Of a DNA stretch of 64,000 nucleotides, positions 27,453 through 57,607 are shown one piece after another (within the stretch, counting starts at the first letter, position 1; each line of letters starts with the position of its first letter). The stretch is from Candidatus Omnitrophota bacterium (GTDB lineage: Bacteria > Omnitrophota > Gorgyraeia > Zapsychrales > Zapsychraceae), in assembly GCA_028280285.1 (NCBI GenBank), contig JANQMA010000026.1, positions 822-64,821 on the forward strand. The letters run 5' to 3'. Both the position numbers and the translations under genes were made by a program. The notes under the pieces were generated by a model, which worked only from the letters and a program-made list of their open reading frames with translations, ran no database searches and was not told the origin of the DNA.

Positions 27453-27489
27453 AAACATATCTAATCGTAATTACTAACTACCAAATAAA

Positions 27490-27997: not shown

Positions 27998-28070
27998 ATA
28001 AGGTTTCGGGTTTTAGGTGTTAGGTTTTAAAAAACAGACCTAACACCCAACACCTCAAACCTTACACCTA
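27998..28070. repeat. Intergenic palindromic element, GGTGTTAGGT family, copy 1
   Basis: ggttttaggtgttaggtttt is followed by cagacctaacacccaacacctcaaacc. The arms are complementary. Confidence 0.7.
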
Positions 28071-28072
28071 AT

Positions 28073-28981
28073 ATGACAAATAAAACTGCCAATATTTCAC
28101 ACAAGCTTCCAAGTTGGTTCAAGCAAGAACTGCCCGACATGGATAAAATCCGTGCAATGAAGGGCATGTTCCGTAAGTCCAAACTCCATACGGTTTGTGA
28201 AAGTGCTTTGTGTCCGAACATGGGCGAGTGCTGGGGTGCCGGCGTTGCGACGTTTATGATTCTCGGGGACATTTGCACGCGCGCCTGCCGTTTTTGTGCG
28301 ATTAAAGCAGGTCGGCCGCTTGCGGTTGATCCTAATGAACCGCAGGAAGTGGCTGAGGCCGTCAAACAGCTTAATCTGCGTTATGTTGTGGTGACATCTG
28401 TTGCACGGGACGATCTTCCCGATGAGGGAGCTGAGCAGTTTTATCAAACTATCACAGAGATCCGCAAATTAATGCCACAGACCAAGATCGAGGTATTGAT
28501 TCCGGATTTTTCCAACAAGATGCAAAGTATAGAACGTCTCATCGCCGCACGGCCTGATGTGGTGAGTCATAATATTGAAACGGTACGCCGTTTATCTGAA
28601 TATGTGCGTTCTAAAGCTTTGCATGACCGTTCACTTAAAGTATTGCGTAACTTTAAACGTATCGCCCCGGATATTATTACCAAATCGAGTTTTATGGTGG
28701 GGATGGGAGAAGAGCACGATGATATTGAAGCTGTGATGAAAGAGCTGGTGGAGGCCGGTGTTGATATTTTAACGATTGGTCAATATCTTCGTCCGACGGG
28801 GCTTAAGCGGCACATTCCGGTTGAGAAATTTTATACACCATCGGAATTCAAGTTTTATAAAGAGTTTGGTGAGCACACAGGTTTTAAATATGTCGAAAGC
28901 GGGCCTAAGGTGCGCAGTTCATTTATTGCCGAGGAAGGTTACCGTCGGTGTATTCAGATTTTGGAGGCAGCTTATTCATGA
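28073..28981 (+). CDS. lipA: Lipoyl synthase (radical SAM)
   Basis: CESALCPNMGECW and CTRACRFCAIK cysteine clusters. Confidence 0.9.
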   Translation: MTNKTANISHKLPSWFKQELPDMDKIRAMKGMFRKSKLHTVCESALCPNMGECWGAGVATFMILGDICTRACRFCAIKAGRPLAVDPNEPQEVAEAVKQLNLRYVVVTSVARDDLPDEGAEQFYQTITEIRKLMPQTKIEVLIPDFSNKMQSIERLIAARPDVVSHNIETVRRLSEYVRSKALHDRSLKVLRNFKRIAPDIITKSSFMVGMGEEHDDIEAVMKELVEAGVDILTIGQYLRPTGLKRHIPVEKFYTPSEFKFYKEFGEHTGFKYVESGPKVRSSFIAEEGYRRCIQILEAAYS

Positions 28982-29970
28982 CAGAAAAAATTAAAGGTGT
29001 TTTATCATTTATTTTGCGGTTCGGCTTAAGCGGACTTCTTTTGTGGTGGTTGTTCACCAAGATTGATACAGAGAAGACCATTGCCGTTTTAAAAGAGGCT
29101 GATCCGTTTTTTATCGGATTGGCTATCGCTGTATTTTTCGTTAACAATGCGATACTTATTTGGCGTTGGTTTGTTTTCATTGATGCTTTGGATTTAAAGG
29201 CCAAGGCGTTCGACATTATCCGTTATTATTTGTTTGGTTTGTTTGGTAATCTTTTTTTACCAAGTGCAGTGGGAGGCGACATTATTAAAGCGGTCGGGTT
29301 GTGTAGCCAAAGTGATCAGAAGCCGCGAGTGGTGGCCTCGATTCTCCTCGACAGATTATCGGGTTTTGTCGGGTTGGTTATCCTGGCTGTTGTGACCTAT
29401 TGTGTTGGATATAAACTTGTTAATGATCCGAGTTTAATGAAGTTTATCATTATTTTGGCTGTCGGGCCGTGTACGCTTGCGGTGGTTCTTTTTAATGAAA
29501 CGATTTTTCCTTTTGGATGCAAGGTTTTTGGATTTTGGCCGAAGCTTAAAAACGCTTTGATTACTATGCACGACGATATTCAAATGCTTAAAGGCAAACA
29601 AGCCCAAGGCTGGTTCGCGATTTTTCTTTCTGTTTTAGGGCAGTTTATTTTTTCCATTTGTTTTTTTCTTATTGCCCGGGCCCTTCATCAGGATGTTAAC
29701 TTAATTCACTTTTTAATCTTTGTGCCGATGATTTGTGTTGTGTCATCGCTGCCGTCTATCGGGGGACTGGGTGTGCGTGAAGTCGGCGCGGTGTATCTGT
29801 TTTCCAAAATCGGTATCGCCGAAGGAGTTTCGGTTAGTATTTCTCTTATGGTTTTTCTACTTATGGTATTAGTTGGTATTATCGGCGGAATATTTTATGT
29901 CACTACAGTATCTTCTGGACGGTTACAATCTGATTCACAAGATGGCAAATCTCAGCTCAAAGAAGCTTGA
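28978..29970 (+). CDS. Flippase-like / lysylphosphatidylglycerol-synthase TM-domain family (UPF0104) membrane protein
   Basis: Multi-TM protein starting MTEKIKGVLSF in an ATGA overlap with lipA. It has the family-typical GGDIIKA motif. Confidence 0.55.
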   Translation: MTEKIKGVLSFILRFGLSGLLLWWLFTKIDTEKTIAVLKEADPFFIGLAIAVFFVNNAILIWRWFVFIDALDLKAKAFDIIRYYLFGLFGNLFLPSAVGGDIIKAVGLCSQSDQKPRVVASILLDRLSGFVGLVILAVVTYCVGYKLVNDPSLMKFIIILAVGPCTLAVVLFNETIFPFGCKVFGFWPKLKNALITMHDDIQMLKGKQAQGWFAIFLSVLGQFIFSICFFLIARALHQDVNLIHFLIFVPMICVVSSLPSIGGLGVREVGAVYLFSKIGIAEGVSVSISLMVFLLMVLVGIIGGIFYVTTVSSGRLQSDSQDGKSQLKEA

Positions 29971-30364
29971 GGAGCAAAGAGCGGGGCTTATCCGCTATAT
30001 TGAACTTAAAAGCCCCCAAGGCAATAATTCTGTAACCATTGTTTTTGATGGAAAAGAAGATGTTTATTCGCCTGCCGTTGATTCGAAGGTCAGAATTATT
30101 TATACGAAGGGTGAGTCGGCGGATGAGAAGATCAAGAAGATGGTTAAGGCCTCTTCTCAGGTCAAGTCGATTGTTGTGGTGACTGATGACCGGGACATTC
30201 AATATTCGGTGAGAGCCGCCGGAGCTAAAATAAGCAGCGTACATGATTTTTTACATCAAAAACCAGCTCCCAAGTCGGGCCGAAGCCGTAAGGTGTCCAG
30301 AGAGTCTGAGCAAAAAATCAATGAAGAATTGAAAGATATCTGGCTAAAAGATAATAATGAATGA
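29897..30364 (+). CDS. NYN/PIN-like YacP-family predicted RNA-binding nuclease
   Basis: LLDGYNLIHK and VVVTDDRDIQ motifs. The start is placed at ATG 29897 and overlaps the upstream gene by ~74 nt. Confidence 0.55.
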   Translation: MSLQYLLDGYNLIHKMANLSSKKLEEQRAGLIRYIELKSPQGNNSVTIVFDGKEDVYSPAVDSKVRIIYTKGESADEKIKKMVKASSQVKSIVVVTDDRDIQYSVRAAGAKISSVHDFLHQKPAPKSGRSRKVSRESEQKINEELKDIWLKDNNE

Positions 30365-30366
30365 TA

Positions 30367-30442
30367 GGAGGTGTTAGGTTGTAGGTGTTGGGTGCTAGTA
30401 TACTAAAACCTAAAACCCAGAACCTAACACCTTTTATCATTT
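30367..30442. repeat. Intergenic palindromic element, GGTGTTAGGT family, copy 2
   Basis: The right arm ctaaaacctaaaacccagaacctaacacc differs by 1 nt from the copy at 51887. Confidence 0.75.
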
Positions 30443-30454
30443 TCTTTTACTACT

Positions 30455-31225
30455 ATGTCTACTATTATTTCTCATATTACCAATACTATCCTTGCCATTG
30501 GTGAATCGTTTTGGTTTTTGGTTGATGTTTTGCGTAATATTTGTCTCGGACGCATACGCATCGGTGAAGTCCTTAAGCAGATGTATGAGCAGGGGATTCA
30601 ATCGATTATTATTATTGCGTTGACATCACTGGCTTCGGGTGTGGTGCTTGCTTTGCAGAGTTCGGTTGTGTTGGAGCGTTTCGGGGCCAAGGAATTTATT
30701 GCACCGCTGGTTGCCTTATCTTTGGTGCGTGAACTAAGTCCTGTCTTTACAGCGCTTATTTTTTCCGGTAAGGCCGGGGCGCGGATTACCGCCGAGCTTG
30801 GGGCAATGAATGTTAACAGCCAAATACTTGCCACACGCACGATGGGGGTGGATCCGATTGAGTTTTTGGTCCTACCGCGGTTTCTGGGATGTTTTTTGGT
30901 GCTTCCGGTTCTAACGGTTTTTTCGGAATTAGTCGGGATATTCGGCGGGTATATGATCGGTGTTTATGAGGCGAATGTGCCATCAACCTTTTATATCAAT
31001 CAGACGATTGATTCGATTCGTTATGTGGACTTTTTCAGCGGGTTTTTCAAGGTATTCTTTTTCTCGATATTGATCGGATGGACGTGTTGTTTTCAAGGAT
31101 ATGTGGCGCGTGGCGGATCACTGGGGGTTGGGCGTTTTACGACAAAAGCAGTTGCGTTTTCCTATATATTTGTCATAATTTCAAATACATTGTTAACCAA
31201 GTTAATTTTGGTCTATTGGGGATAA
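30455..31225 (+). CDS. mlaE: ABC transporter permease, MlaE family
   Basis: MlaE-like TM organisation and conserved sequence. Confidence 0.8.
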   Translation: MSTIISHITNTILAIGESFWFLVDVLRNICLGRIRIGEVLKQMYEQGIQSIIIIALTSLASGVVLALQSSVVLERFGAKEFIAPLVALSLVRELSPVFTALIFSGKAGARITAELGAMNVNSQILATRTMGVDPIEFLVLPRFLGCFLVLPVLTVFSELVGIFGGYMIGVYEANVPSTFYINQTIDSIRYVDFFSGFFKVFFFSILIGWTCCFQGYVARGGSLGVGRFTTKAVAFSYIFVIISNTLLTKLILVYWG

Positions 31226-31226
31226 A

Positions 31227-31565
31227 ATGAATAATAAAGTATGTACCACAATTACCGCCCTATTCTGTATTTTTACTATTTTGACTATGATTTCATGTCA
31301 AACGACTACAAGTAGAAGGCATTTGGACCGCAGTTATCCCTTTGAGGCTATTGAAGCGGATTGGATTGTAAATGGTGAGCCGATAGAGTTTGAAGGAGAA
31401 CAATGGTATCCTCAGGATGGTATCGAAGTCTTTACAGATCAGGAAATGCATTTGCTTGGTGAGTATCGTGATGTTCAGTTTTTTGTCGATAAAGTGGATG
31501 TGCGGCCGTTTGCGCGGCTCTATACGAAGTTTGATAATAATAAGTTCCGTTATTATAAAAAATGA
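31227..31565 (+). CDS. Small lipoprotein of unknown function
   Basis: Signal peptide with an ILTMISC lipobox. Confidence 0.5.
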   Translation: MNNKVCTTITALFCIFTILTMISCQTTTSRRHLDRSYPFEAIEADWIVNGEPIEFEGEQWYPQDGIEVFTDQEMHLLGEYRDVQFFVDKVDVRPFARLYTKFDNNKFRYYKK

Positions 31566-32281
31566 TCATTGAAGTCGATAATCTTCACAAATCATTTAAG
31601 GGCCAACCGGTGCTTGACGGTGTTTCATTTACGGTCAATGCAGGCGAAACACTGGTGATTCTTGGGGAGAGTGGCACGGGCAAAAGCGTTCTTTTAAAAC
31701 ATATGATTGGTTTGCTTAAACCCGATCGTGGTTCAGTGAAAATCGAAGGCGAAGAAATCACATCTCTTCGGGAGAAGAGGCTGCTTAAGATCAGGCAGAA
31801 GATGGGATATATGTTTCAGGAAGGGGCCTTGTACGATTTTATGAATGTCTATGAGAATATTGCCTTTCCGCTGCGCGAGCATACCGTCCTGAGTGCTGAA
31901 GAAATCAGCGCTAAAATTTATGAATTGCTTGAGTTGATTGATTTAAAAGATGTGGCGTCTAAGTATCCATCGGAGTTGAGCGGCGGGATGAAAAAACGTG
32001 TCGCGCTTGCGCGGAGTATGGTTTTGGGTTCGAAAGTACTTTTTTGTGACGAGCCGACTTCCGGACTTGATCCGATCCGCAGTAGGGATATTTCGGATCT
32101 TATCAAGCAGGTGAGCCGTGAGAAAAAATGCACGACGATTATAACATCACATGATATGAAGAACTCATTTCGCATTGCCGACAGGTTGCTTTTACTTAGA
32201 AATGGTAAGATAGTTTTAATGGGGAAGGAGGAGAACTTCGTTAATTCTTCCGATTCATTCGTCAGGGAGTTTGTTGATTAG
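31562..32281 (+). CDS. mlaF: ABC transporter ATP-binding protein, MlaF family
   Basis: Walker A GESGTGKS, LSGGMKKRVALAR signature, Walker B LFCDEPTSGLD. Confidence 0.85.
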   Translation: MIIEVDNLHKSFKGQPVLDGVSFTVNAGETLVILGESGTGKSVLLKHMIGLLKPDRGSVKIEGEEITSLREKRLLKIRQKMGYMFQEGALYDFMNVYENIAFPLREHTVLSAEEISAKIYELLELIDLKDVASKYPSELSGGMKKRVALARSMVLGSKVLFCDEPTSGLDPIRSRDISDLIKQVSREKKCTTIITSHDMKNSFRIADRLLLLRNGKIVLMGKEENFVNSSDSFVREFVD

Positions 32282-32375
32282 AACTTGAGGTATAGTACTT
32301 AGGACATAGGACTTGGGACTTAGGGTGCCAACCTCCAGGTCCTAAGTCCCAACGCCTAAGTACAATAAAAATAAC
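32282..32375. repeat. Intergenic palindrome built of ACTTAGGAC-type units
   Basis: gtacttaggacataggacttgggacttagg is paired with cctaagtcccaacgcctaagtac. Confidence 0.6.
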
Positions 32376-32376
32376 T

Positions 32377-33048
32377 ATGACTAACAACGATTTTATCAAA
32401 CGATTTTCGGCCGGTGTTTTTCTTATAGCCGGTGTTGTGATGATTTTTATGTTTATCGCAACGCTCGGTAGAGACAAAGGTCTTGCGCGGGATAAATTTC
32501 AAGTAACTGTTCTTTACCGCAATATTGGCGGTCTAGTTATTGGTGCGCCCACACGGCTTGCCGGGGTTAATGTGGGGAGTGTGACCGAAATTGCTTTTCT
32601 TGATGAGGAAATAGAGGGTAGACAGGTTAAAATAGTTCTTAATATTTTCAACCGATATAAAAAGCAGTTTGCTCAGGGACTTGTTTTTGCGATCCGTACC
32701 GAAGGTGTGTTGGGATCAAAGATTGTTGAAATTTATCCGGTCGAAGGAGCTCCGGCTATTGATATTACACGCCCGGTATTGGGTAATGATCCGATTGACG
32801 TTCAGGATCTAGCCAAGGAATTTTCTCAAGCGGCCGAAGCATTCACTAAAACAGCCCAAGAGATGAGCCGTATTGACATGTTTGAATTATCAGAGGTAAT
32901 GATTGAATCCTCGCGCGCGCTTCTGGAGACATCCAAAGGGATTAATGGCATTTTAGATGAAATGGAAGATATAACCATTAAGTCGAAAAGAATGTTTGAC
33001 CGTATTGAAGAAAAGGTCATTAATGATGAACTGTTTAAAGTGTTTTAA
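32377..33048 (+). CDS. mlaD: MCE-domain protein MlaD
   Basis: An N-terminal TM helix followed by an MCE domain, right after mlaE and mlaF. Confidence 0.8.
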   Translation: MTNNDFIKRFSAGVFLIAGVVMIFMFIATLGRDKGLARDKFQVTVLYRNIGGLVIGAPTRLAGVNVGSVTEIAFLDEEIEGRQVKIVLNIFNRYKKQFAQGLVFAIRTEGVLGSKIVEIYPVEGAPAIDITRPVLGNDPIDVQDLAKEFSQAAEAFTKTAQEMSRIDMFELSEVMIESSRALLETSKGINGILDEMEDITIKSKRMFDRIEEKVINDELFKVF

Positions 33049-33059
33049 AAGGGGAGATT

Positions 33060-33353
33060 ATGTTTGTCTTAAGTAATTTTATTGTGGCCATAGCCAAGCT
33101 TGTGAATATTTTTTTAACGATCATGTATTGGCTTATTTTGATCCGGGCGCTCATTAGCTGGGTGAACCCTGATCCGTATAATGCGATTGTGCAATTTTTG
33201 CATCGCACGACCGAACCGATATTGCAACCGGTCAGACGCATGCTGCCGCCAATGGGGATTGATATTTCGCCGATTATTGTTTTTATTGCTATTATTTTCT
33301 TGCAGTCTTTTTTGGTTAGAACGCTTTATGATATAGCGCATAGCTTGCGCTAA
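33060..33353 (+). CDS. yggT: YggT family membrane protein
   Basis: ISWVNPDPYNAIVQFLHRTTEPILQPVRRMLPPMGIDISP. Confidence 0.75.
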   Translation: MFVLSNFIVAIAKLVNIFLTIMYWLILIRALISWVNPDPYNAIVQFLHRTTEPILQPVRRMLPPMGIDISPIIVFIAIIFLQSFLVRTLYDIAHSLR

Positions 33354-33488
33354 GGCCTATTCAGTCCTAAAAAAAGGTTGCAAAACAGTCCCATAGAGGG
33401 TAATATTCGTAGTTTGGCTACGAAAGTTATATAAAAATAGATAGCCAATATGTAGAAAAAAGAGGTAAAGAGGTATTATATAAACATT

Positions 33489-33559
33489 TTAAAACATTAA
33501 ACTTTAAACACTTAACAGATTTATTTCCAAACAGTTTAATGTTTATTGTTTAAAGTTTG
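33489..33559. repeat. Intergenic palindromic element, AAACTTTAAACA family, copy 1
   Basis: aaacattaaactttaaaca is paired with tgtttattgtttaaagttt. Confidence 0.7.
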
Positions 33560-33590
33560 AATTTATCTCTATTATTAAGATAGGAGCAAA

Positions 33591-33875
33591 GTGATGTTCG
33601 ATAAAATGAAAGAAATGATGGAAATGAAAAAGCAGGCCGATACGATCAAGAAGACTCTTGATAAGGATCTGCTAACGGTAACAGATGTACGTGGCATCAA
33701 AATCGTTATAAATGGTTCGCAAATGATTCAGTCGATTGAGATTGAGGAAGGTTTTCATAAAAACTCATCTCGTGAGCGTTTGGAAAAAGATTTTATGCGG
33801 GCTGTCAATACAGCGATCGGTAAATCACAAAAGGCAGCTGCTAAGAAAATGCAAGGCATGATGCCGGGATTTTAG
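33591..33875 (+). CDS. ybaB: Nucleoid-associated protein YbaB/EbfC
   Basis: MMFDKMKEMMEMKKQA N-terminus and typical family sequence. Confidence 0.8.
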   Translation: MMFDKMKEMMEMKKQADTIKKTLDKDLLTVTDVRGIKIVINGSQMIQSIEIEEGFHKNSSRERLEKDFMRAVNTAIGKSQKAAAKKMQGMMPGF

Positions 33876-33909
33876 TCAAAATTGTTCAATAATTAATAAA
33901 GGAGATAAA

Positions 33910-34143
33910 ATGCCGTACGATAAGTCACTTGACATTGAGTCATTTAAAGAAACAAAAGAATGGGAAGAAACACGAATCTCTGTTGGGGTTTTTTCATATA
34001 ATGAAGGAGCTAAAAAACTACAGTTATCACGTGAAAATCTGGGTTCAACCGGTGAATGGCGCTTTGCCAAATTGGGGCGTATGAACAAAGAAGAAGCACA
34101 AGAAATTGTTCCGATTATGATGAAGGCCATTGAGAATATGTAA
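33910..34143 (+). CDS. Small hypothetical protein, possibly a PC4/YdbC-like ssDNA-binding fold
   Basis: Strong RBS AAAGGAG. The pattern WEETRISVGVFSYNEG...GEWRFAKLGRMNKEEAQEI resembles B. subtilis YdbC. This is recalled from memory and is low confidence. Confidence 0.4.
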   Translation: MPYDKSLDIESFKETKEWEETRISVGVFSYNEGAKKLQLSRENLGSTGEWRFAKLGRMNKEEAQEIVPIMMKAIENM

Positions 34144-34228
34144 TGTAGGGAGTAGGGAATAGGGCATAGGGAACAGTGTTACACTTACTGTTACCTAACC
34201 CCTAATCCCTATTCCCTAAATAAGGAGC
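34141..34228. repeat. Intergenic palindrome built of TAGGGAA units
   Basis: gtagggagtagggaatagggcataggg is paired with cccctaatccctattcccta, with an inner hairpin aacagtgttacacttactgtt. Confidence 0.6.
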
Positions 34229-34232
34229 AAGT

Positions 34233-34706
34233 ATGGACGATATTTATGTAACACGTGAATTTTTTCATAAACTTAATGATAATCTTGAGAAATTGAAAAA
34301 AGACAGCATTAAGATTGCCGGTCAAATAGAGGAAGCTCGCCTTTTGGGGGATTTAAAGGAAAATGCTGAGTATCATGCGGCGAAAGAGGCGCAAGCCCAT
34401 AATGCGGCCCGCCAATCAGATTTAGAAGATAAAATTTCACGTGCCAAAATTATCGAAGATCAAAACATACCGTCCGATAAAATATATATCGGGGCATATG
34501 CGACGGTTCAAGATTTGAAAAGCAAAGAAGAAATTGTCTACATGCTTGTTTCGGCTGAAGAATCTGATTTCGAAGCCAATAAGATATCAATTTTGTCTCC
34601 CATTGGAAAAGGTCTTCTGGGTAAAGCCGAAGGCGAAGAGGTTGAAATTGATGTTCCTGCCGGCAAAATTAATTATAAGATTTTAAAAATTGAGCGACCA
34701 AGCTAA
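34233..34706 (+). CDS. greA: Transcription elongation factor GreA
   Basis: A coiled-coil N-terminal domain with LKENAEYHAAKE and a C-terminal FKBP-like domain. Confidence 0.85.
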   Translation: MDDIYVTREFFHKLNDNLEKLKKDSIKIAGQIEEARLLGDLKENAEYHAAKEAQAHNAARQSDLEDKISRAKIIEDQNIPSDKIYIGAYATVQDLKSKEEIVYMLVSAEESDFEANKISILSPIGKGLLGKAEGEEVEIDVPAGKINYKILKIERPS

Positions 34707-35381
34707 ATGCTTTCGGTTATCATCCCTGTCTATAATGAAGAAAGGACCGTATCAGAAGTTATTGATAAGGTCCTTTCTTCTAGCCTGCCTACGAAACTTT
34801 CTTTAGAGATTATTGCCATTAATGACGGTTCAACTGACGGGACACGTGCTATTCTTGATAACATCAAGTATCCGCAGCTGCGCGTTTTTCATCAGGAGAC
34901 CAATCGGGGAAAGACGTCAGCTGTTAGAAAGGGGATTTTTGAAGCAAAGGGTTCATTGATCATTATCCAAGATGCCGATCTAGAATATTCACCGGTTGAT
35001 TATGCCGCTATTATTCAGAAAATGGATGATACTGGTGCAGAGGTAGTGTACGGCTCCAGATTTCTAGGAGAGATCAAGGATATGGCGCCGATCAATTGGA
35101 TGGCTAATCGCATATCGAATATTGTCTTTAACTTAAAGTTTAAAACGAATATTACAGATATTAATACATGTTTTAAATTATTTAAAGCGGATGTGCTTAA
35201 ACAATTAACCATTGAGTCTGATCATTTTGGTTTTGAAACCGAGGTTACCACCAAGCTAATACGGCAGGGAGTAAGGATCATCGAAACGCCCATTTCTTAT
35301 CATGCGCGCACCAAAGCCGAAGGTAAAAAAATCGATTGGGCTAAGGCGGTGCAAATGTTTTTAGGGATGTTTAGATATTAA
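34707..35381 (+). CDS. GT2 glycosyltransferase (DPM1-like, soluble)
   Basis: VIIPVYNEE, INDGSTDGT and QDADLEY motifs. Confidence 0.75.
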   Translation: MLSVIIPVYNEERTVSEVIDKVLSSSLPTKLSLEIIAINDGSTDGTRAILDNIKYPQLRVFHQETNRGKTSAVRKGIFEAKGSLIIIQDADLEYSPVDYAAIIQKMDDTGAEVVYGSRFLGEIKDMAPINWMANRISNIVFNLKFKTNITDINTCFKLFKADVLKQLTIESDHFGFETEVTTKLIRQGVRIIETPISYHARTKAEGKKIDWAKAVQMFLGMFRY

Positions 35382-35395
35382 ACTAGGAGGCTAGT

Positions 35396-41343: not shown

Positions 41344-41356
41344 ATAAGGAAGATGA

Positions 41357-41857: not shown

Positions 41858-42015
41858 TAAATTTTATTCGGTTATAGTTACGGTTGCGAAGCCCGCTTCG
41901 TATGTTCGTTTAACGGTTGTCGTCATAAAACACGTTTAACGTAACCAAAAGCCGATACGGGCATCGATACCGAATAACGAATGACATAACCGGATTATTG
42001 ATAAACTGAAAAAAT

Positions 42016-42750: not shown

Positions 42751-42771
42751 ACCATAACAAAGGATATTATT

Positions 42772-43044: not shown

Positions 43045-43046
43045 TC

Positions 43047-44361: not shown

Positions 44362-44370
44362 CCTTGCTCA

Positions 44371-45180
44371 TTGATTGGCAAAAAACAGACTATGGTTTTT
44401 TTTCGTTTTTATATTTTTTTCATTCTTGTTCTTTTGATAATGGCGCAAGGATGCGCCTCTTTCGGCACGTATAACCCAGCGACGGGGAAAAAAGAGTTTG
44501 TCGCCGTGTCAACGCGTCAAGAAATCAGTATGGGCGCGACCGTTCACAATCGGCTCAAACAGAGGATGACGTTTTCGAATGATCCTGTGAAGTTAAGCCG
44601 GCTTGAAAAGATTGGTCAGCGCGTGGCCCTTGTCTCCGATAGACAGGATTATATATATCAGTTTTATTTGGTTGAAGACGAGACTTTAAATGCCTTTACC
44701 ACGCCGGGGGGCAATATTTATTTTAATACCGGGCTTATGGAAAAATTAGAAAATGATGATCAGGTTGCCTTTGTCATCGCACATGAGATCGGGCACTGTG
44801 CCGCTAAACATGTGGCGAAAAAATATCAGGCGGCGCTCGGTTATGATTTAATCGGGTCGATCATTCTTGATCAAGTTTCGGGAGGAGGCTATGCCAAAAG
44901 CCTGGCATCGCTCGGTTCCGATGTTCTGATGAATTTGGTGTTTTCAGCCTACAGTCGTAAGGATGAACGCGAGGCGGATCTTTTAGCCGTTAAATATTCT
45001 TACCTTGCCGGGTATGACCCGGAAGAAGGGGTTAAGACGTTCATTATCTTGAAGAAACATTCTAAGGGAACAATGGTTCCGCATATGTTGCGTTCTCATC
45101 CCGACTTACTGGAAAGGATTGAAAATGTGGAAAAAGAAGCGAAAAGGGTCAAATTAGAATACGGAAAATTTTCAAAATAA
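44371..45180 (+). CDS. M48-family zinc metallopeptidase lipoprotein (BepA/LoiP-like)
   Basis: Lipobox MAQGC. HEXXH motif VIAHEIGHCAAKH with a downstream E. Confidence 0.8.
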   Translation: MIGKKQTMVFFRFYIFFILVLLIMAQGCASFGTYNPATGKKEFVAVSTRQEISMGATVHNRLKQRMTFSNDPVKLSRLEKIGQRVALVSDRQDYIYQFYLVEDETLNAFTTPGGNIYFNTGLMEKLENDDQVAFVIAHEIGHCAAKHVAKKYQAALGYDLIGSIILDQVSGGGYAKSLASLGSDVLMNLVFSAYSRKDEREADLLAVKYSYLAGYDPEEGVKTFIILKKHSKGTMVPHMLRSHPDLLERIENVEKEAKRVKLEYGKFSK

Positions 45181-45185
45181 GGTAA

Positions 45186-45222
45186 ACTTATTATTCGGCT
45201 CGAGTTAGCCGCTTGCATTGGA
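45186..45222. promoter_or_regulatory. Conserved ~35-nt motif CTTATT..GGYTCGAGTTRGCCGCTTGCATTGGA, copy 1. The second copy is at 55388-55420.
   Basis: The two loci share a nearly identical core, tcgagtt(a/g)gccgcttgcattgga. Both are intergenic and lie upstream of plus-strand genes. Confidence 0.5.
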
Positions 45223-45251
45223 ATACTACCTGACAAACTGGTGGAGTTATT

Positions 45252-45566
45252 ATGAAACGTATCGGTGTTGCCGCGAGTAAGATCGCAAAAGATAATTATT
45301 GGTTGTACTACTTTTATGTGATTTTGATCTCCCTTATGTTGTCTCTGCTGCTTTTTCTTGTGGTGGGAATGGTTGTTATCTTTGCCATTGCGGTTTTAAC
45401 ATATGTTGCTACCGAGCTTATGGGCTATGATTTTGCTGAAAAGCGCAATACTATCGTGACCATTTGTATGGCGACACTCACGGTGGTGATTCTCTTATTT
45501 AATGTTTTTTCCATACTGTGTAATATCAATTTTTCAAAAGAAAGTGACAAAAAGGTAGAAAATTAG
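45252..45566 (+). CDS. Small membrane protein of unknown function
   Basis: Two predicted TM helices. Confidence 0.45.
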   Translation: MKRIGVAASKIAKDNYWLYYFYVILISLMLSLLLFLVVGMVVIFAIAVLTYVATELMGYDFAEKRNTIVTICMATLTVVILLFNVFSILCNINFSKESDKKVEN

Positions 45567-45610
45567 GAAATATTTCCTTATGATCGAATTGTCTAATGGA
45601 AGGATAAAAA

Positions 45611-45961
45611 ATGGGCCAAAATGTTGTTGATTTAGATGAATTAAAAGAGCGCGTTCAAAACGATACTGAGCTTTTGCTTGAGTTGTTTGATATTTTTACA
45701 GAAGACTATGAGCCAAAGCGCAAGCAATTGGAAGCAAGCCTTTCGGGGGGTAATTTTGAAGAGGTTAGAAATATTGCGCATTCACTTAAAGGAGCCTCCG
45801 GGAACATATCTGCCAAAGATCTACGTGAAAAACTAATCATTTTTGAGGAAATGGGCGCAAAGAACGATGCGCAAGGTTTCGAAGACTTATTAAAAGAGCT
45901 CGATGCTTCTTACGCAGAGTTAGTTGTGCGGATTACGGAAATCAAAAAAGATTTAGCATAA
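45611..45961 (+). CDS. Hpt (histidine phosphotransfer) domain protein
   Basis: AHSLKGASGNISA phospho-histidine motif. Confidence 0.75.
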   Translation: MGQNVVDLDELKERVQNDTELLLELFDIFTEDYEPKRKQLEASLSGGNFEEVRNIAHSLKGASGNISAKDLREKLIIFEEMGAKNDAQGFEDLLKELDASYAELVVRITEIKKDLA

Positions 45962-45986
45962 TAGACCCTTCCCTGGAGTTATCACA

Positions 45987-46691
45987 ATGTCCTCAATGAC
46001 GATAGCGATCGGCCTCTGTATTATCACGGTTATTTGTTTAGGTATTATCTTTATGATGCCTGATGAAAAGTCTATGGCGCAGAAAAGAAAACAAGAAAAG
46101 GCCGAAAGACGCCGTGAGAGGAAACAAGAACAGCAGACATCGCACAAAGATTGGGAAAAAACCGCTCGGCGCTATCAATCTCAACTGCACCAAGTCAAAA
46201 ATGAATTAGAGTCCCATGCTCAGCAGATACGTGAGCTTCAAAAACAGCTTTTAGCTGAGCAGGTTAAGACAGAAAAAATTAAAGAAAAATATAATAAAGT
46301 AAAAGAGTGGATTGCCAAAAAAGAAAGTGATGTCGGTAAAAAAGAAAAAGGAATGACGGATATCAAACAGGAGTTAAAAAAGGTTCAAGATCTTTATAGT
46401 GATGAGCATGTTAAAAATATTCATCTGCAAAAGCAACTGGATGAGCTTAAAAAAGAGCATGAATTAACCGTTGAACAAAGACGCCTGGCTGAAAATGAAA
46501 GCGCGACCCTCAAGGCGAAAAACGACATCCACCGTCAAGAAATAGCTCATCTCAAAAAGGACATCGCGATCTTAACCAAAAAAAAGAATGACGAAACCTT
46601 TGTGGCGCGGTCTGAGTTTTTAAAACTCGAAAAAGAATTAAAAGAAAAAAATAAAGAAATAGAACGCCTTAATCGGCAAAAAGAAAGTTAA
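45987..46691 (+). CDS. Membrane-anchored coiled-coil protein (K/E-rich)
   Basis: An N-terminal TM helix followed by about 200 aa of heptad-like charged sequence. Confidence 0.5.
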   Translation: MSSMTIAIGLCIITVICLGIIFMMPDEKSMAQKRKQEKAERRRERKQEQQTSHKDWEKTARRYQSQLHQVKNELESHAQQIRELQKQLLAEQVKTEKIKEKYNKVKEWIAKKESDVGKKEKGMTDIKQELKKVQDLYSDEHVKNIHLQKQLDELKKEHELTVEQRRLAENESATLKAKNDIHRQEIAHLKKDIAILTKKKNDETFVARSEFLKLEKELKEKNKEIERLNRQKES

Positions 46692-46743
46692 AGGGGTCAG
46701 AGCATTTTTTCATTCATGATGAAAAAATGCTCTGACCCCTTTA
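46692..46743 (+). terminator. Perfect 21-bp-stem hairpin (probable intrinsic terminator)
   Basis: aggggtcagagcattttttcat / atgaaaaaatgctctgacccct, followed by TTT. Confidence 0.7.
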
Positions 46744-46749
46744 GGAGAT

Positions 46750-47916
46750 GATAAGATCCGCTTTGCTGAAAGAACAAATTGGGATTTCACCCCCAATGAA
46801 ATATCTGCACTTATTGACCGTTACAAAAAAGAAAAGACAGCCTATATCGATTTAACGGTCTCTAACCCTACGGAATGCGCATTTTCTTTTTATTCAAAAC
46901 ATTTATTAGGGCCATTCACGGCCATTGATAATCTCACATATCATCCAAGCTCCTCAGGGCTCGATGCTCCGCGCGCCGCAATTACTCAATACTATCATGA
47001 CGACGGTTATACTGTTGATTGTGAGCGTATTATTTTAACCGCGTCAACCTCGGAGAGCTATTCGTATCTTTTTAAGCTTTTATTAAATCCGGACGAAGAG
47101 GTATTGTGCCCTCAGCCAAGTTATCCATTATTTTCCTTTTTAGGTGATGTCAATGATGTACGGATGGTACCGTACAGATTAACCTATGCTGCGTCTTGGC
47201 GCATTGATTTCGATTCCTTGGAAAACAGTATTACAGATAGTACGCGTGCGGTTTTGTTGGTCAATCCGAATAATCCGACAGGGTCTTTTATTAAAAGAGA
47301 CGAAATCGAACGCCTCAATGGCATATGCCAAAAACATAATTTGGTGATTATGAGTGATGAAGTATTTAATAATTATGCGATTGATGATGAAGAAAAATTG
47401 TCACTTATAAATAACACAGAGGTGCTCACTTTCGTTTTAAGCGGGCTGTCAAAGGTATTGGCTTTGCCACAGATGAAATTGGCCTGGATTATTATGAATG
47501 GTCCGCACGATCAGATGAAAGACGCTTACAGCCGTCTGGAAATGATCGCCGATACATATTTGTCTGTCAGCACGCCTGTTCAAAATGCCTTGGTGCATTG
47601 GCTGTCATTAAGGAAAGAAATTCAAAATGACATACGCAATCGAATTGAAGACAATCTTGCAATTATCGAAAAATTACTGGATAATCATATATCCACACTG
47701 CTTAAATTTGAGGGTGGGTGGAGTGCGGTATTAAGGTTTAACGGCCTAACTGATGACTTTGCTTACAGGTTGCTTGATCAACACAAGGTCTATATCCATC
47801 CCGGTTATTTTTATGATTTTGATGAGGCGAGCTATTGTGTGCTAAGCTTATTGACACCGACGAACATATTAGCAGAGGGATTGGAGAGAATACTCAAATG
47901 TCAAAATGGAGGATAA
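46750..47916 (+). CDS. Class I/II PLP-dependent aminotransferase (AlaT-like). Its 5' end is anomalous: the conserved N-terminus has no in-frame canonical start.
   Basis: The ORF track only starts at 47104, but the same frame reads DKIRFAERTNWDFTPNEISALIDRYKKEKTAYIDLTVSNPTE... back to nt 46750. The only ATG (46748, abutting AGGAG) is in a different frame. Confidence 0.6.
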   Translation, partial: DKIRFAERTNWDFTPNEISALIDRYKKEKTAYIDLTVSNPTECAFSFYSKHLLGPFTAIDNLTYHPSSSGLDAPRAAITQYYHDDGYTVDCERIILTASTSESYSYLFKLLLNPDEEVLCPQPSYPLFSFLGDVNDVRMVPYRLTYAASWRIDFDSLENSITDSTRAVLLVNPNNPTGSFIKRDEIERLNGICQKHNLVIMSDEVFNNYAIDDEEKLSLINNTEVLTFVLSGLSKVLALPQMKLAWIIMNGPHDQMKDAYSRLEMIADTYLSVSTPVQNALVHWLSLRKEIQNDIRNRIEDNLAIIEKLLDNHISTLLKFEGGWSAVLRFNGLTDDFAYRLLDQHKVYIHPGYFYDFDEASYCVLSLLTPTNILAEGLERILKCQNGG

Positions 47917-48318
47917 ATGATGACTATGCGCAAAGTGTTGGTCGCTGATGACGAGGAGGAAGTATTGGAAATCATGGCCAAAAAGGTTACCCTGGAGGGT
48001 TATTGTGTCATCGAGGCGGCTGACGGCCAAGAGGCCTGGGATAAGATTAAGGAAGAGAATCCGGATATTATTGTGCTTGATTTGAATATGCCGCGTATGC
48101 ATGGCTTTGAAGTGCTTCAACTTATCCGGGAAAATCCGCTCTCTAAAAAATGGCAGCCGGTGATTATTGTCTCAGCTCAAAATGAACTCGCGGACATACA
48201 AAAAGGATATTCACTTGAGGCTGACCACTACATTGCTAAACCCTGTTCCATGACCGATATTGTGAAAGCCATTAAATTAATGGAAAGTTTGATCCCACAG
48301 AGAGTGAGTGAAGAATAA
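47917..48318 (+). CDS. Single-domain response regulator (CheY-like receiver)
   Basis: VLVADDEEE...DIIVLDLNMP...IIVSAQ...KP. Confidence 0.8.
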   Translation: MMTMRKVLVADDEEEVLEIMAKKVTLEGYCVIEAADGQEAWDKIKEENPDIIVLDLNMPRMHGFEVLQLIRENPLSKKWQPVIIVSAQNELADIQKGYSLEADHYIAKPCSMTDIVKAIKLMESLIPQRVSEE

Positions 48319-49116
48319 ATGAAAATATTAGTGATACTTGTTAGTTTTTGCTTCGCGTTTTTTCTTTATGTACGGTATTTAGAGAAAAAGACGATATTTT
48401 ATCCGGATAAGAATATTGAAATGATTCCGACGGATTATCATTTAGAGTACGCGGATGTTCACTTTCTATCGGGTGGGAACAAGCTCCATGGATGGTGGAT
48501 TCCAAAAGACGGCGCCACGCACACAATCATTTATTTGCATGGCAATGCAGGCAATATTTCCGGAAGGCTTGAAAAAGTAAGCATTTTAAATGCCCTTGGT
48601 GTTAATGTCTTTATTTTTGATTATCGCGGCTACGGGTTGAGTGAAGGCTCTCCTTCGGAAGAAGGGCTGTATGAAGATGCCGATGCGGCCTATGATTATC
48701 TGATTCAGGAAAGAAAGCTTGATCCGAACAGTATTGTAATCTATGGCGCTTCGTTGGGTGGGGCCCCGGCTGTTGATTTAGCCTCAAAAGTTGATTGTGG
48801 GGCGCTTATTCTAAATTCAACATTTACCTCTGGCGTTGATATGGGCAAACATATCTATCCGTTTATTCCATCGTTTTTGGTTAATATCAAATTAGATTCG
48901 GTGAGTAAAATCAAAAATATAACGGTACCAAAATTATTTATTCACAGTGTGGATGATAAAGTCGTTCCATTTGTGCTGGGGGAAAAATTATTTAACGCAG
49001 CCGCTGAACCGAAAAGATTCGAACGCATGGTCGGCGATCATGTCAATGCGCATTTTTATGAATATGACCGGTATAAAAAAGTTTTAGGTGATTTCTTAAA
49101 AGGCCTTGCCATATGA
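48319..49116 (+). CDS. Alpha/beta hydrolase (S9/S33-like) with an N-terminal membrane anchor
   Basis: HGNAGN, a GASLGG nucleophile elbow, and a downstream D and H. Confidence 0.7.
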   Translation: MKILVILVSFCFAFFLYVRYLEKKTIFYPDKNIEMIPTDYHLEYADVHFLSGGNKLHGWWIPKDGATHTIIYLHGNAGNISGRLEKVSILNALGVNVFIFDYRGYGLSEGSPSEEGLYEDADAAYDYLIQERKLDPNSIVIYGASLGGAPAVDLASKVDCGALILNSTFTSGVDMGKHIYPFIPSFLVNIKLDSVSKIKNITVPKLFIHSVDDKVVPFVLGEKLFNAAAEPKRFERMVGDHVNAHFYEYDRYKKVLGDFLKGLAI

Positions 49117-50312
49117 AAAATTTTTTGAGGGTCAAGGGAACAAAAATTTATGACGGCCGTAAACAGGCTGTCTCACTACGGGGGGTTAATCTCGGCGGAT
49201 GGCTTATGATGGAAGCGTACTTCATGCATTCGCCTAATACGGCCGAGCAGCTTTTTAAGAAGAATTTTGTCAAACATCTTTCCCCTTCGGCTCTTAAGAG
49301 TTTTGAAAAGTCGTTTAGAGATAATTTTATCCGTGAAGCTGATATTAAAACAATCAAATCGCTTGGTTTTAATTGTATGCGTGTGCCGTTTAATTGCCGT
49401 TTAATTGAAACAAAGCCGTACAGTTACAGTAAGACAGGACTTAGTTATTTGGATAGGGTTGTCGCTTGGGCGCGCAAATACAAAATATGGGTTATTTTGG
49501 ATTTGCATGCCGCCCCTGGGGCGCAAAATAACGATTGGCATGGCGACAGCCTCGGGCCGGCGGATTTGTGGGCCAAGGAGTCTAATCGCAAACGAGTCTA
49601 TGCGCTTTGGCAGTTTATTGCCAAACGCTACAAAGAGGAAGAATGGGTTGCCGGATATGATGTCCTCAATGAATCGGTGACAACGAACACTAAGTTACTC
49701 AATAGTTTTTACAAAAAGGCAATAGAAGCGATCCGCGCAGTGGATACAAAACACATCCTTTTTATTGAAGGTAATAATTGGGCGACAGATATTAAATGTT
49801 TAGATGAATTTGATGATGATAATTATGTGTTGAGTATTCATAATTATGAGCCGCTTGATCTCACCTTTAATTTTGTCCCGTTTCTTAAGTATCCCTTAAA
49901 ATCTAAAAAACGCACGTACAATAAAGCTTTGCTTAAAAAACATCTCGATCAGTATGTGAAGATTTCGAAAAAACGTAATGTTCCCATCTATGTGGGAGAG
50001 TTTGGCGTGCATTACAGGAAAAATACATGCGGGGAGATTGATTGGCTTACAGATGTTTTGGATTTATTTAATAAAAATAATTTTCACTGGACATATTGGA
50101 CGTACAAGGCGGTCAAACACTACATGTTTCCCGACGGTATTTTTAGTTATTATGAAAATCCTCCTTGGGTGAACCGTCCGGGGCCTGTCACCGGATGGAA
50201 TACCTATTACCTGCATTGGCGTAAGTCAAAAGCCGCTATGATCCGTTCTTGGCGCTCAAAGGAGTTCAAAGAGAATAAACTTACCCTAAAAGCATTAAGA
50301 AATCATGTCTAA
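49113..50312 (+). CDS. Glycoside hydrolase family 5
   Basis: A VLNE catalytic acid/base region and a GEFG nucleophile (IYVGEFG). NCMRVPF is near the N-terminus. Confidence 0.75.
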   Translation: MKNFLRVKGTKIYDGRKQAVSLRGVNLGGWLMMEAYFMHSPNTAEQLFKKNFVKHLSPSALKSFEKSFRDNFIREADIKTIKSLGFNCMRVPFNCRLIETKPYSYSKTGLSYLDRVVAWARKYKIWVILDLHAAPGAQNNDWHGDSLGPADLWAKESNRKRVYALWQFIAKRYKEEEWVAGYDVLNESVTTNTKLLNSFYKKAIEAIRAVDTKHILFIEGNNWATDIKCLDEFDDDNYVLSIHNYEPLDLTFNFVPFLKYPLKSKKRTYNKALLKKHLDQYVKISKKRNVPIYVGEFGVHYRKNTCGEIDWLTDVLDLFNKNNFHWTYWTYKAVKHYMFPDGIFSYYENPPWVNRPGPVTGWNTYYLHWRKSKAAMIRSWRSKEFKENKLTLKALRNHV

Positions 50313-51084
50313 AAAAATAACAAGCGTAGCCAATACGCATATTAAACAGTGTGTGGCGCTTCGCAAAGCCCAGGTCCGCAAAAAACAGGGTGTCACGTTG
50401 GTTGATGGGATTAAAGAGCTCAATCATGCTGTTAAGGGTGGCGTGCGTATTGAGGAAATCTATGTGCTTAATGCAAAGGCGCGAGGGCTTGCGCCGCTCA
50501 TCAAGAAAGCTCAATCTGTTTTTGAAATAACCGAAGCTGTGTATGAAAAGATTGCCTATGGTGCGCGCGGCGATGGGGTTGTCGCTATTGTCAGACCAAA
50601 AATTTATTCACTTAATAATTTAAATTTAAACCAAGACGCGTTGTGCATTGTTTTAGAAAATGTGGAGAAGCCCGGTAATCTTGGGGCGATTTTAAGAACA
50701 GTTGACGCAGCCGGTGCCCACTGTGTGTTTGTTTGCGATCAGCAGACAGATATTTTTAATCCGAATGTTGTTCGTGCCAGTTTAGGAACGGTATTTACAA
50801 CTAAGGTGATTAGTATATCATCGGATGAATTGATTGATTATTTGAAAGCGCATAAAGTTAGTGTTTGTGCGACGACTCCTGATGCTGCGCAAGTGTACCA
50901 TGAAGCTGACTTAAGTGGGGCCAAGGCCATTGTTATGGGAGAAGAGCATAAAGGTTTAACAGATAAATGGCTTAAAGCAGCGGATGTGAAGGTTTCTATT
51001 CCGATGGGAGGCACTGTTGATTCTTTGAATGTTTCTGTCTCAACGGCGGTTATTTTGTATGAAGCTGTTAGGCAGCGTGGATAA
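50305..51084 (+). CDS. TrmH/SpoU-family RNA 2'-O-methyltransferase
   Basis: A SPOUT domain with LENVEKPGNLGAILRTVDAAG and IVMGEEHKGL. Confidence 0.75.
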   Translation: MSKKITSVANTHIKQCVALRKAQVRKKQGVTLVDGIKELNHAVKGGVRIEEIYVLNAKARGLAPLIKKAQSVFEITEAVYEKIAYGARGDGVVAIVRPKIYSLNNLNLNQDALCIVLENVEKPGNLGAILRTVDAAGAHCVFVCDQQTDIFNPNVVRASLGTVFTTKVISISSDELIDYLKAHKVSVCATTPDAAQVYHEADLSGAKAIVMGEEHKGLTDKWLKAADVKVSIPMGGTVDSLNVSVSTAVILYEAVRQRG

Positions 51085-51099
51085 TGAAAAACAATTTTT

Positions 51100-51158
51100 A
51101 AACAATAAACTTTAAACATTAAACAGGCTTGTTTAATGTTTAGTGTTTAAAGTTTAAT
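51100..51158. repeat. Intergenic palindromic element, AAACTTTAAACA family, copy 2
   Basis: aaacaataaactttaaacattaaaca is paired with tgtttaatgtttagtgtttaaagttt. Confidence 0.75.
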
Positions 51159-51166
51159 CAAATAGT

Positions 51167-51889
51167 ATGACCAAAATAAGACTACAAGTTTTCCTCTCCC
51201 GCAATGGCGTTTGTTCCCGCCGGGAGGCCATGGGACTTATTAAGGAAGGCCATGTTTCGGTCAATGGTCAAAAACAGGCGGAGCCGTCTTTTGCGGTTGA
51301 TCCGGATAAAGATAAAATTTGTTTTAAGGGAAAAGTAATTGAAACAAAACAATTAGAGTATGCACTTTTTCATAAACCACAAGGATATGTGACAACCAAG
51401 GCCGATCACGGTAGTCAGAAAAATATTTACAAAATTCTGCCGAACAAGTATAAACATTTGCTGCCTGTCGGGCGTTTGGATAAAAATACAGAAGGTTTGC
51501 TGTTATTGACCAATGATGGTGATTTGGCCTTTGCTTTAACGCATCCTAAGTTTCATGTCGATAAGACATATTTTGTTATTGCCAAAGGCGATGTAGAGCT
51601 AAAAACCATCAGCCGTTTGGAAACGGGTGTTGTGATTGAAGGCGGCAAAACGGCACCGGCGAAAATAAAAGAAGTTAGAAGTAAGGGGCGTGATACGCAT
51701 TTGAAAATAACCATTCATGAAGGCAAGAAGCGTCAAATACGACTTATGTTTGAGGCCGTGGGGCATAAGGTGAAATATTTAAAACGGTTAACCCAGGGGC
51801 CTATTGGATTGGGTTCATTGCCGGTTGGTAAGACGCGTGAACTTGATCGAAAAGAGATCAAGGCATTAAAGGCCATAAGCCATAGGTAA
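51167..51889 (+). CDS. RsuA/RluB-family pseudouridine synthase with an S4 domain
   Basis: An S4 domain, then HKPQGYVTT...PVGRLDKNTEGLLLLTNDGDLA. Confidence 0.8.
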   Translation: MTKIRLQVFLSRNGVCSRREAMGLIKEGHVSVNGQKQAEPSFAVDPDKDKICFKGKVIETKQLEYALFHKPQGYVTTKADHGSQKNIYKILPNKYKHLLPVGRLDKNTEGLLLLTNDGDLAFALTHPKFHVDKTYFVIAKGDVELKTISRLETGVVIEGGKTAPAKIKEVRSKGRDTHLKITIHEGKKRQIRLMFEAVGHKVKYLKRLTQGPIGLGSLPVGKTRELDRKEIKALKAISHR

Positions 51890-51947
51890 TAGGTTTTAGG
51901 TGTTAGGTGCTAGGAGACTAAAACCTAAAACCCATAACCTAACACCC
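51887..51947. repeat. Intergenic palindromic element, GGTGTTAGGT family, copy 3
   Basis: ggttttaggtgttaggtgctagg is paired with ctaaaacctaaaacccataacctaacacc. Confidence 0.75.
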
Positions 51948-57582: not shown

Positions 57583-57607
57583 GGGTAATTGAGTAATATG
57601 GAAAAAT

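Follow-up and report, generated by a model that had tools for sequence, protein, structure and literature searches.

Heptamer-array hairpins at gene 3′ ends in a Candidatus Omnitrophota genome

We analyzed a stretch of 64,000 nucleotides from a Candidatus Omnitrophota bacterium (assembly GCA_028280285.1, contig JANQMA010000026.1, positions 822 to 64,821; here called the window), in which an initial annotation had described three palindromic intergenic elements as a dispersed family of their own. The family does not stand alone. We found 13 period-7 hairpins in the 64 kb (H1 to H13), with inverted partners and strong folds at all 13 sites, and ten of them are built from units other than the GGTKTTA heptamer of the three copies. 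Each element has the same plan: two inverted arrays of about four imperfect 7-nt repeats with a short loop between them. The three copies are thus probably the GGTKTTA members of a lineage-specific bloom of heptamer-array hairpins at gene 3′ ends, and would represent, in this Omnitrophota genome, the inverted-pair arrangement of a known but unexplained class, the heptameric simple sequence repeats (SSRs).

The sequences of the three copies were confirmed at their coordinates, and the identities of the neighboring genes were taken from Pfam. Positions are those of the window, and none of the features carries a strand assignment. Copy 1 (H4; 27999 to 28068) lies between def and lipA and occupies the 76-nt gap from the def stop codon (27994 to 27996) to the lipA ATG (28073); its left array spans 28001 to 28029 and its right array 28038 to 28071, and its end is 3 nt before that ATG. 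Copy 2 (H5; 30362 to 30439) lies between an NYN_YacP gene and mlaE, and its stem starts on the TGA stop codon of the NYN_YacP gene and is followed by a T-rich tail of 23 nt. Copy 3 (H10; 51881 to 51946) lies between the gene for a pseudouridine synthase (S4/PseudoU_synth_2) and an ABC-F gene. It overlaps the TAA stop (51887 to 51889), so that its first units encode the last codons and the TAA of the synthase. The reported position just after stop codons was therefore correct, with copies 2 and 3 overlapping the stops.

The three copies had also been described as long hairpins, and they form long imperfect hairpins on either strand, with energies of −23.5 to −41.9 kcal/mol and z-scores of −3.4 to −8.3 against dinucleotide shuffles. 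Copy 1 folds at −31.3 kcal/mol on the plus strand and −38.0 on the minus strand (z of −6.7 and −8.3), copy 2 at −41.9 and −34.7, and copy 3 at −23.5 and −29.9. An inverted-repeat search paired the arms of all three, which are 78 to 88% complementary (copy 2, 45-nt arms, 82%). The arms had been read as repeated units; they are repeated, and we correct the building block to a 7-nt tandem unit, GGTKTTA / TAAMACC, present about four times per arm by Tandem Repeats Finder (TRF). TRF reported period 7 with 3.6 to 4.9 copies in five of the six arms (4.1 and 4.9 copies in copy 1), the left arm of copy 2 being read by eye only. Allowing up to one mismatch, GGTGTTAGGT occurs 17 times in the window compared to 1.95 expected, and 13 of the 17 occurrences are inside the three copies.

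The 7-nt period characterizes the whole window. In a sliding autocorrelation over periods 4 to 12, 16 segments had period 7 compared to 0 to 4 for any other period, and the 24 period-7 arrays listed by TRF have 4.0 copies at the median. Units of about nine types occur side by side. GGTKTTA and TAAACNN each form three hairpins, and GTAATTR forms one hairpin plus two unpaired half-sites. Further units are TAGGACN, TAGGGNA, GTGGTCW, TAGATCC, GCTCGTY, GTTGTYR, and A-rich heptamers. Within the TAAAC family, the order of units is shuffled and the loops are unrelated. All of the window hairpins sit in co-directional intergenic gaps, one of them after tRNA-Gln, and 10 of the 13 start at −8 to +22 nt relative to the upstream stop codon. 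Seven of the filled junctions have no Shine-Dalgarno sequence before the next start. A fourteenth clear heptamer hairpin lies 1.7 kb past the window end, in the 5.7 kb that we covered beyond it. These elements share at least three imperfect 7-nt units, a convergent partner, a stop-adjacent intergenic position, and multiple loci, as heptameric SSRs in inverted pairs do.

The ten other hairpins, with fold energies given for eight of them, are as follows from left to right. The TAGATCC-type H1 (13748 to 13822; −29.1 kcal/mol) follows an 1859-amino-acid (aa) open reading frame (ORF), with TRF period 7 and 4.7 and 6.0 copies. H2 (20564 to 20757; −30.4 kcal/mol; TRF) is a composite 199-nt hairpin in which outer A-rich heptamers (TAAAAAA, GAGAATT) and their T-rich partner arms enclose a single GTAATTG-type array at 20636 to 20664. 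The GTGGTCW-type H3 (21854 to 21920; −25.7 kcal/mol; TRF) follows a DUF354 gene. The TAGGACN-type H6 (32295 to 32363; −39.6 kcal/mol; TRF) lies between mlaF (ABC_tran) and mlaD, and the TAAACNN-type H7 (33497 to 33560; inverted repeat and TRF) lies between yggT and ybaB. Upstream of greA is the TAGGGNA-type H8 (34146 to 34218; −44.9 kcal/mol; TRF). The TAAACNN-type H9 (51098 to 51157; −21.0 kcal/mol; TRF) separates the SpoU methylase and pseudouridine synthase genes, the GTAATTR-type H11 (57604 to 57692; −27.5 kcal/mol; TRF) follows a Cu-oxidase_4 (YfiH-like) gene, the TAAACNN-type H12 (60695 to 60782; inverted repeats and TRF) follows hisG, and the GCTCGTY-type H13 (63437 to 63505; −28.3 kcal/mol; TRF) begins 28 nt after tRNA-Gln. 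An unpaired half-site, a single C-strand GTAATTR-type array (CGTAATTACTAACTACCAAATA), lies at 27466 to 27487 between panD and def. Beyond H1 to H13 there is one probable degenerate member, a 130-nt hairpin at 41866 to 41995 (−44.3 kcal/mol), whose right arm keeps the 7-nt phase (ATACCGA ATAACGA ATGACAT), a periodicity seen by eye only.

Related genomes allowed us to date these hairpins. The best named relatives of LipA and of the pseudouridine synthase are in Candidatus Omnitrophota, while the exact proteins were found only in one NCBI metagenome-assembled genome contig and in Logan contigs of run SRR20820735; L001, the sole Logan contig wholly within the window, is identical to it. Synteny is kept in the relatives, so filled and empty sites can be compared. 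In L121 (LipA 79%), def and lipA are 2 nt apart, the NYN gene and mlaE overlap, and mlaF and mlaD are 17 nt apart. In L122 (LipA 76%), the NYN gene and mlaE are 8 nt apart, and L124 (LipA 73%) has no hairpins and a def-lipA gap of 18 nt. The H6 junction (mlaF-mlaD) measures 6 to 17 nt in L121, L122, and L124, and the H7 hairpin is absent in L121 and L124. For the downstream loci, L148 (pseudouridine synthase 74%) has the SpoU and pseudouridine synthase genes 2 nt apart and a 4-nt overlap of the synthase gene with ABC-F, and in L150 (pseudouridine synthase 66%) the gap is 16 nt. Empty orthologous sites were thus seen for copies 1 to 3, H6, H7, and H9. In total, the relatives have one heptamer hairpin in 61.7 kb compared to 14 to 15 in 69.7 kb of the window lineage. 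These tight junctions and the scarcity of hairpins in relatives show that the hairpins were gained recently, in a lineage-specific bloom. The initial annotation had proposed a comparison with related strains as a check on mobility; the absence of the copies from orthologous junctions fits that proposal in spirit.

The single hairpin in the relatives is at L122:5648-5778, where the def-lipA gap, the junction of copy 1, holds a hairpin of another heptamer (GGCARTR); two other relatives are empty there. The junction is a hot spot of insertion, or else it has kept a single old hairpin in which the units have turned over.

Copy 3 changed the gene into which it came. The window pseudouridine synthase ends in ...KALKAISHR*, and that of L148 ends in ...KALMKIKHTVIKNKK* and is 7 aa longer, while the ABC-F N termini of the two are identical in 30 of 30 residues. 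The junction reads CATA-GGTAATA|GGTTTTAGG in the window versus the ancestral CATACGGTAATAAAG. By this match, the first “unit” is old coding sequence and the array gives the new stop. The pseudouridine synthase gene thus lost its original final codons to copy 3, and its stop codon now comes from the hairpin.

The initial annotation took the likeness of the right arms of copies 2 and 3 as a sign of common ancestry and not of convergent terminator evolution. The 29-nt right arms are as quoted, identical at 28 of 29 positions, where no chance match is expected. Aligned ungapped over the whole hairpin, copies 2 and 3 agree at 56 of 63 positions (89%), with the same 4 + 4 units and the same loop length; the agreement is 28/29 in the right arm but only 28/34 in the left arm and loop. 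As a baseline, comparable periodic arms from unrelated genomes were set against each other in 595 pairs, of which only one reached 28/29 or better. With this baseline and the 56/63 identity, the relationship between copies 2 and 3 is real, whether through shared ancestry or a recent conversion tract. Copy 1 shares only the unit type with the other two; when all three are aligned, only the phased GGT/ACC cores are common, and the order of units in copy 1 differs. Convergence does occur as well. Several unrelated metagenome contigs, with a GC content of 0.33 to 0.64, contain a 25-mer in which the variable base alone departs from the copy 2/3 arm, and near-identical arms do arise independently. 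No further copies of the copy 2/3 arm were found elsewhere in the window, and all that a scan of JGI metagenomes for it returned were unrelated arrays in which another base stood at the variable position.

The copies had been likened to repetitive extragenic palindromic (REP) sequences or transposable elements of the miniature inverted-repeat type (MITEs) that may double as terminators. In this reading, they would be a nonautonomous REP/REPIN- or MITE-like family moved by a transposase acting in trans from elsewhere in the genome, of the REP-associated tyrosine transposase (RAYT)/IS200 type or another. Three copies within 24 kb, two of them 89% identical over their full length, with all three sites empty in relatives and several unit types occurring three times each, are what such a family would leave behind, as are the Logan contigs that break within two hairpins. 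The elements themselves do not look like this. The alignment of the three copies has neither a conserved REP head (GTAG/CGTC) nor a shared 20- to 40-nt palindrome, and no terminal inverted repeats exist apart from the arms, as the whole element is a palindrome. Comparison of filled and empty sites at copies 1 to 3 revealed no target-site duplication, flanking direct repeat, common flanking motif, or conserved terminal motif. Among the 57 window ORFs with Pfam results, none is a transposase, a RAYT, or a reverse transcriptase. About nine unrelated unit types would require many cognate enzymes, the TAAAC family varies in unit order and loop, and near-identical arms occur in unrelated organisms. 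We conclude that the heptamer hairpins are probably neither REPs nor MITEs, and we consider it improbable that a transposase of this kind moved them.

The contig breaks are an observation in their own right. Logan contigs of the same sequencing run break inside two TAAAC-type hairpins, H7 (where L001 ends, at 33556) and H12 (where L138 starts, at 60749). This suggests that these repeats break de Bruijn assembly, being multicopy or palindromic.

We then weighed whether the hairpins were selected in place as transcription terminators or 3′-end stabilizers, either as an “I-shaped” terminator without a U-tract or as a block to 3′-5′ exonucleases, with heptamers as the easiest way to a long stem. 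Within the window they begin −8 to +22 nt from stop codons, which would suit such a role, and so would the T-rich tail of copy 2. In addition, canonical terminators were not found in the intergenic gaps of 20-40 kb. H8, which has no T-run, stands at 34146 to 34218 upstream of greA, where L121 (11586 to 11650) has a canonical terminator with a GC stem and a T-run. The canonical intrinsic structure (GC-rich stem, 3- to 8-nt loop, U-tract) is not seen in copies 1 and 3, which lack a T-run; only copy 2 of the three has a T-rich tail, and most of the window hairpins have no T-run. A scan with the canonical terminator consensus listed none of the hairpins and returned only coding-region noise. Furthermore, copy 1, H6, and H9 end 3, 13, and 9 nt before the next start in conserved operons (def-lipA, mlaF-mlaD, and spoU-psiS) that are tight in relatives, with gaps of 2 to 17 nt. 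Transcription must therefore read through these hairpins, and coupled translation probably also passes through the junctions. A terminator role, which the initial annotation had raised for the copies, is doubtful, the hairpins are probably not efficient terminators, and selection in place for 3′-end function as a whole seems to us quite improbable.

No sign of selection at the RNA level was seen. Folding is stronger on the sense strand at 7 sites and on the antisense strand at 6, and the hairpins contain 24 G·U pairs in the sense and 27 in the antisense orientation. In scans of Rfam 15 by gathering threshold and by E value, only tRNA-Gln passed; a mir-196 match in copy 2 is at chance level (25 bits versus 55; E value of 0.26). 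Readings as CRISPR, tRNA-derived, or riboswitch elements were rejected, with no spacer structure and no support from ARAGORN or Rfam. Because there is no strand bias, transcription must read through, and the window ORFs with Pfam results include no mobile-element genes, we read the hairpins as DNA-level microsatellite palindromes.

Many of the units carry TAG or TAA in phase, and 9 of 14 5′ arms close all three reading frames compared to 7% of random 30-mers. We considered all-frame closure as a selected trait and rejected it, as a repeated heptamer that contains a stop triplet is sufficient (an estimated fraction of about 0.4 is expected at the window GC content). Closure of all frames is a by-product of a period coprime to 3, with no evidence for selection.

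The arrays could also be binding sites for a protein that reads DNA or RNA in 7-nt steps. On DNA this might be a ribbon-helix-helix protein of the omega type or a global regulator of the IHF/HU type, and on RNA a HutP-like binder of UAG-N4 or cold-shock domains. The heptads of omega proteins and the UAG repeats of HutP are precedents for readers of 7-nt steps, and the strict 7-nt phase, the four or so units per arm, and the in-phase TAG or TAA of many units match this idea. Paired tandem arrays in Geobacter metallireducens have been read as regulator sites (PMC2700814), and heptamer repeats in Nostoc affect recF/recO expression (bioRxiv 10.1101/2022.06.06.494920). About nine different units in 70 kb would, however, require many specificities, and the variable positions change from unit to unit. 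Close relatives share the genes yet lack the sites, and no candidate binder was identified. Binding-site arrays are therefore, in our judgment, a very improbable explanation.

The same design is found far outside the Omnitrophota. The core GGTGTTAGGT-N12-42-ACCTAACACC matched at least 119 GTDB stretches, compared to about 17 expected by our own arithmetic. The figures that follow apply among the matches listed. These come from Acidobacteriota, Armatimonadota, Gemmatimonadota, Bacteroidota, Balneolales, Cyanobacteria, Planctomycetota, Desulfobacterota, and Omnitrophota, in stretches with a GC content of 0.39 to 0.71, and 74 of 122 have at least three phased units in both arms. The same loci contain 29 period-7 hairpins of other units compared to 0 to 10 hairpins for periods 5, 6, and 8 to 10. 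The median distance from the facing stop codon is 19 nt by crude ORF calls, and the 50 classified gaps comprise 27 co-directional, 15 convergent, and only 8 divergent ones, which a role at 3′ ends would also predict. Among 29 nonseed hairpins from other phyla, 25 have the G-rich array as their 5′ arm whichever strand is read (p = 1e-4), although these genomes were picked via a G-first seed. The window lineage has 9 G-first and 4 C-first hairpins; in viral contigs the counts are 5 and 7, mostly of matches that are not heptamer arrays. Horizontal transfer is not needed to explain why one unit recurs across phyla, as there are about 2,000 possible units and very many hairpins.

Two groups of matches deserve separate mention. 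The GGTGTTA hairpins of Gracilimonas (L009, L014, L016, L038, L062, L116, and L119) share a conserved nonheptamer interruption, TTGYAAC / TNGCAA, and seem to form a true sequence family; the two copies of L062 are identical in their right flanks and differ in their loops. Five other stretches (L004, L033, L051, L103, and L109) contain 12-bp inverted repeats, most of them GGTGTTAGGTAG ... CTACCTAACACC, with loops of 17 to 20 nt, which are not heptamer arrays. L004, L033, and L051 are from Desulfurococcales archaea, and L004 and L033 each hold two such repeats per contig, 2 to 3 kb apart.

Mazel reportedly described the cyanobacterial STRR heptamers in 1990, and in 2007 Mrazek is said to have found that heptamer tandem repeats are generally in excess in the intergenic DNA of prokaryotes. 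Like the window arrays, STRRs are intergenic 7-nt tandem units with several unit families per genome. STRR and TAACTGA arrays (PMC4679880), however, are mostly single direct arrays that are often upstream of start codons, whereas nearly all of the window arrays have an inverted partner and follow a stop codon. According to Mori et al. (2019, PMC6344855), no other intergenic tandem repeat is as abundant across prokaryotes as the heptamer, and there is “no clear clue” to what it does. Among the closest known cases is the GGGAATC heptameric SSR of Xanthomonas, which forms 70 to 75 convergent pairs per genome that are able to form stem-loops (Rehm et al. 2015, PMC4692102). As in the window, the units are imperfect, the arrays mostly have about four of them, the pairs lie just after or overlap stop codons, and the G-rich array comes first on each strand. 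These arrays are transcribed, and their length varies among related species (PMC4692102). Xanthomonas differs in having one dominant G-tract unit, discussed as a former of G-quadruplexes, while most of the nine or so window units are incapable of this structure and some are A/T rich. In addition, 83% of orthologous sites are conserved in Xanthomonas, but those in relatives of the window genome are empty.

G. metallireducens has classes of three to five tandem 7- to 9-nt units paired on opposite strands (Aklujkar et al. 2009, PMC2700814). Like the window hairpins, some of these lie inside one operon (proB-proA), and the arrays are absent from the sister species; unlike in the window, one class is octameric and the distance between arms varies. 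They were interpreted as putative IHF/HU binding sites. The REP/BIME/REPIN elements of Proteobacteria are likewise multicopy extragenic imperfect palindromes after stop codons that are transcribed into mRNA stem-loops, and REPs within 15 nt of a stop codon are reported to affect translation. REPs differ in having no internal tandem-repeat structure. They form families of 20 to 40 nt whose sequence is conserved and headed by GTAG or CGTC (PMC3733652), and they are mobilized by RAYTs (PMC3116915).

How would a bloom of this kind arise and be tolerated? We propose that the hairpins act as DNA-level structures in which units may arise and turn over by slipped-strand mispairing, and intrastrand template switching would keep the two arms alike. 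Whole hairpins or conversion tracts could occasionally be copied to new gene ends via microhomology; CATA(C)GGTAATA is present both at the copy 3 junction and in the ancestral coding sequence. The hairpins might be tolerated for three reasons: they would keep out of promoters, a repeated 7-nt unit with a stop triplet would shut all three frames, and a folded stem may rejoin the upstream stop and the downstream start and so preserve translational coupling. In mRNA, they would be imperfect intercistronic or 3′ stem-loops of 18 to 36 bp and may slow exonucleases, RNA polymerase, or ribosomes.

Several points weigh against the bloom of DNA-level heptamer hairpins that we favor. Neither direct evidence of slippage or template switching nor strain-level alleles were seen with the one assembly available. 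The argument from translational coupling is inference only. The median of 19 nt to the facing stop and the many convergent gaps (15/50) among the matches listed would equally be predicted by a function at 3′ ends, and H8 takes the place of the canonical terminator of L121. Finally, the G-first polarity (25/29 among the matches listed) and the narrow size of about four units suggest a constraint beyond what a purely neutral model would predict. A further reading is that heptamer-array hairpins are one pan-bacterial, mechanistically unified class of self-propagating DNA palindromes, with a built-in polarity (the G-rich array 5′ on both strands) and a preference for about four units per arm, made or spread by a dedicated process without a transposase. 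We regard this as an unlikely possibility and put it forward tentatively. If it were true, the process could be, for example, nascent-strand snap-back or template switching primed by microhomology at the ends of genes, or it could depend on an unknown enzyme or binder, and blooms such as this Omnitrophota genome would be places where the process is now active.

The window has other features outside the heptamer hairpins. Three giant ORFs are consecutive at 17 to 8059, 8163 to 13742, and 14001 to 17330 (2680, 1859, and 1109 aa), and no Pfam domain was found in the two of the three that were tested. A perfect palindrome with 25 + 25 nt (TAAAGGGGTCAGAGCATTTTTTCAT / ATGAAAAAATGCTCTGACCCCTTTA; 46689 to 46743) has no 7-nt periodicity and spans from a stop codon to the gene that follows, an orthologous junction that measures 3 nt in L150. 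In the aminotransferase frame downstream (46723 to 47104; conserved AERTNWDF), no ATG, GTG, or TTG precedes 47104, and an ATG at 46748 is one base off the frame, which could be a frameshift, a pseudogene, or an assembly error. The 22-nt motif TCGAGTTRGCCGCTTGCATTGG occurs twice, upstream of a 104-aa ORF (45200 to 45221) and upstream of rmuC (55397 to 55418), where it is the 5′ arm of a long hairpin (55395 to 55499) with no Rfam match. After ABC-F, a nested nonheptamer hairpin at 53899 to 53999, with an 18-bp outer stem around CCTTTTTCTATGGAAAAAGG, spans the entire gap to the next start. Just after H12, an unannotated 33-codon ORF (60809 to 60910) encodes the very basic peptide MPCGKKRKARKIRTHKRKKLRKSMRHLKKRKSR.

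Taken together, the window hairpins belong to a kind of repeat that is already known, widespread, and unexplained, and they are notable for their phylum, their density, and the diversity of their units. Such hairpins should not be called REPs, MITEs, or terminators by default during annotation. Some of them entered probably translationally coupled junctions of essential operons, and one of them rewrote the C terminus of a protein. With a recent bloom, many units, and filled and empty junctions that can be compared, the window is an unusually clean natural experiment, in which the polarity, the arm size, the microhomology at copy 3, and the required read-through offer handles on how such repeats originate, spread, and are tolerated.

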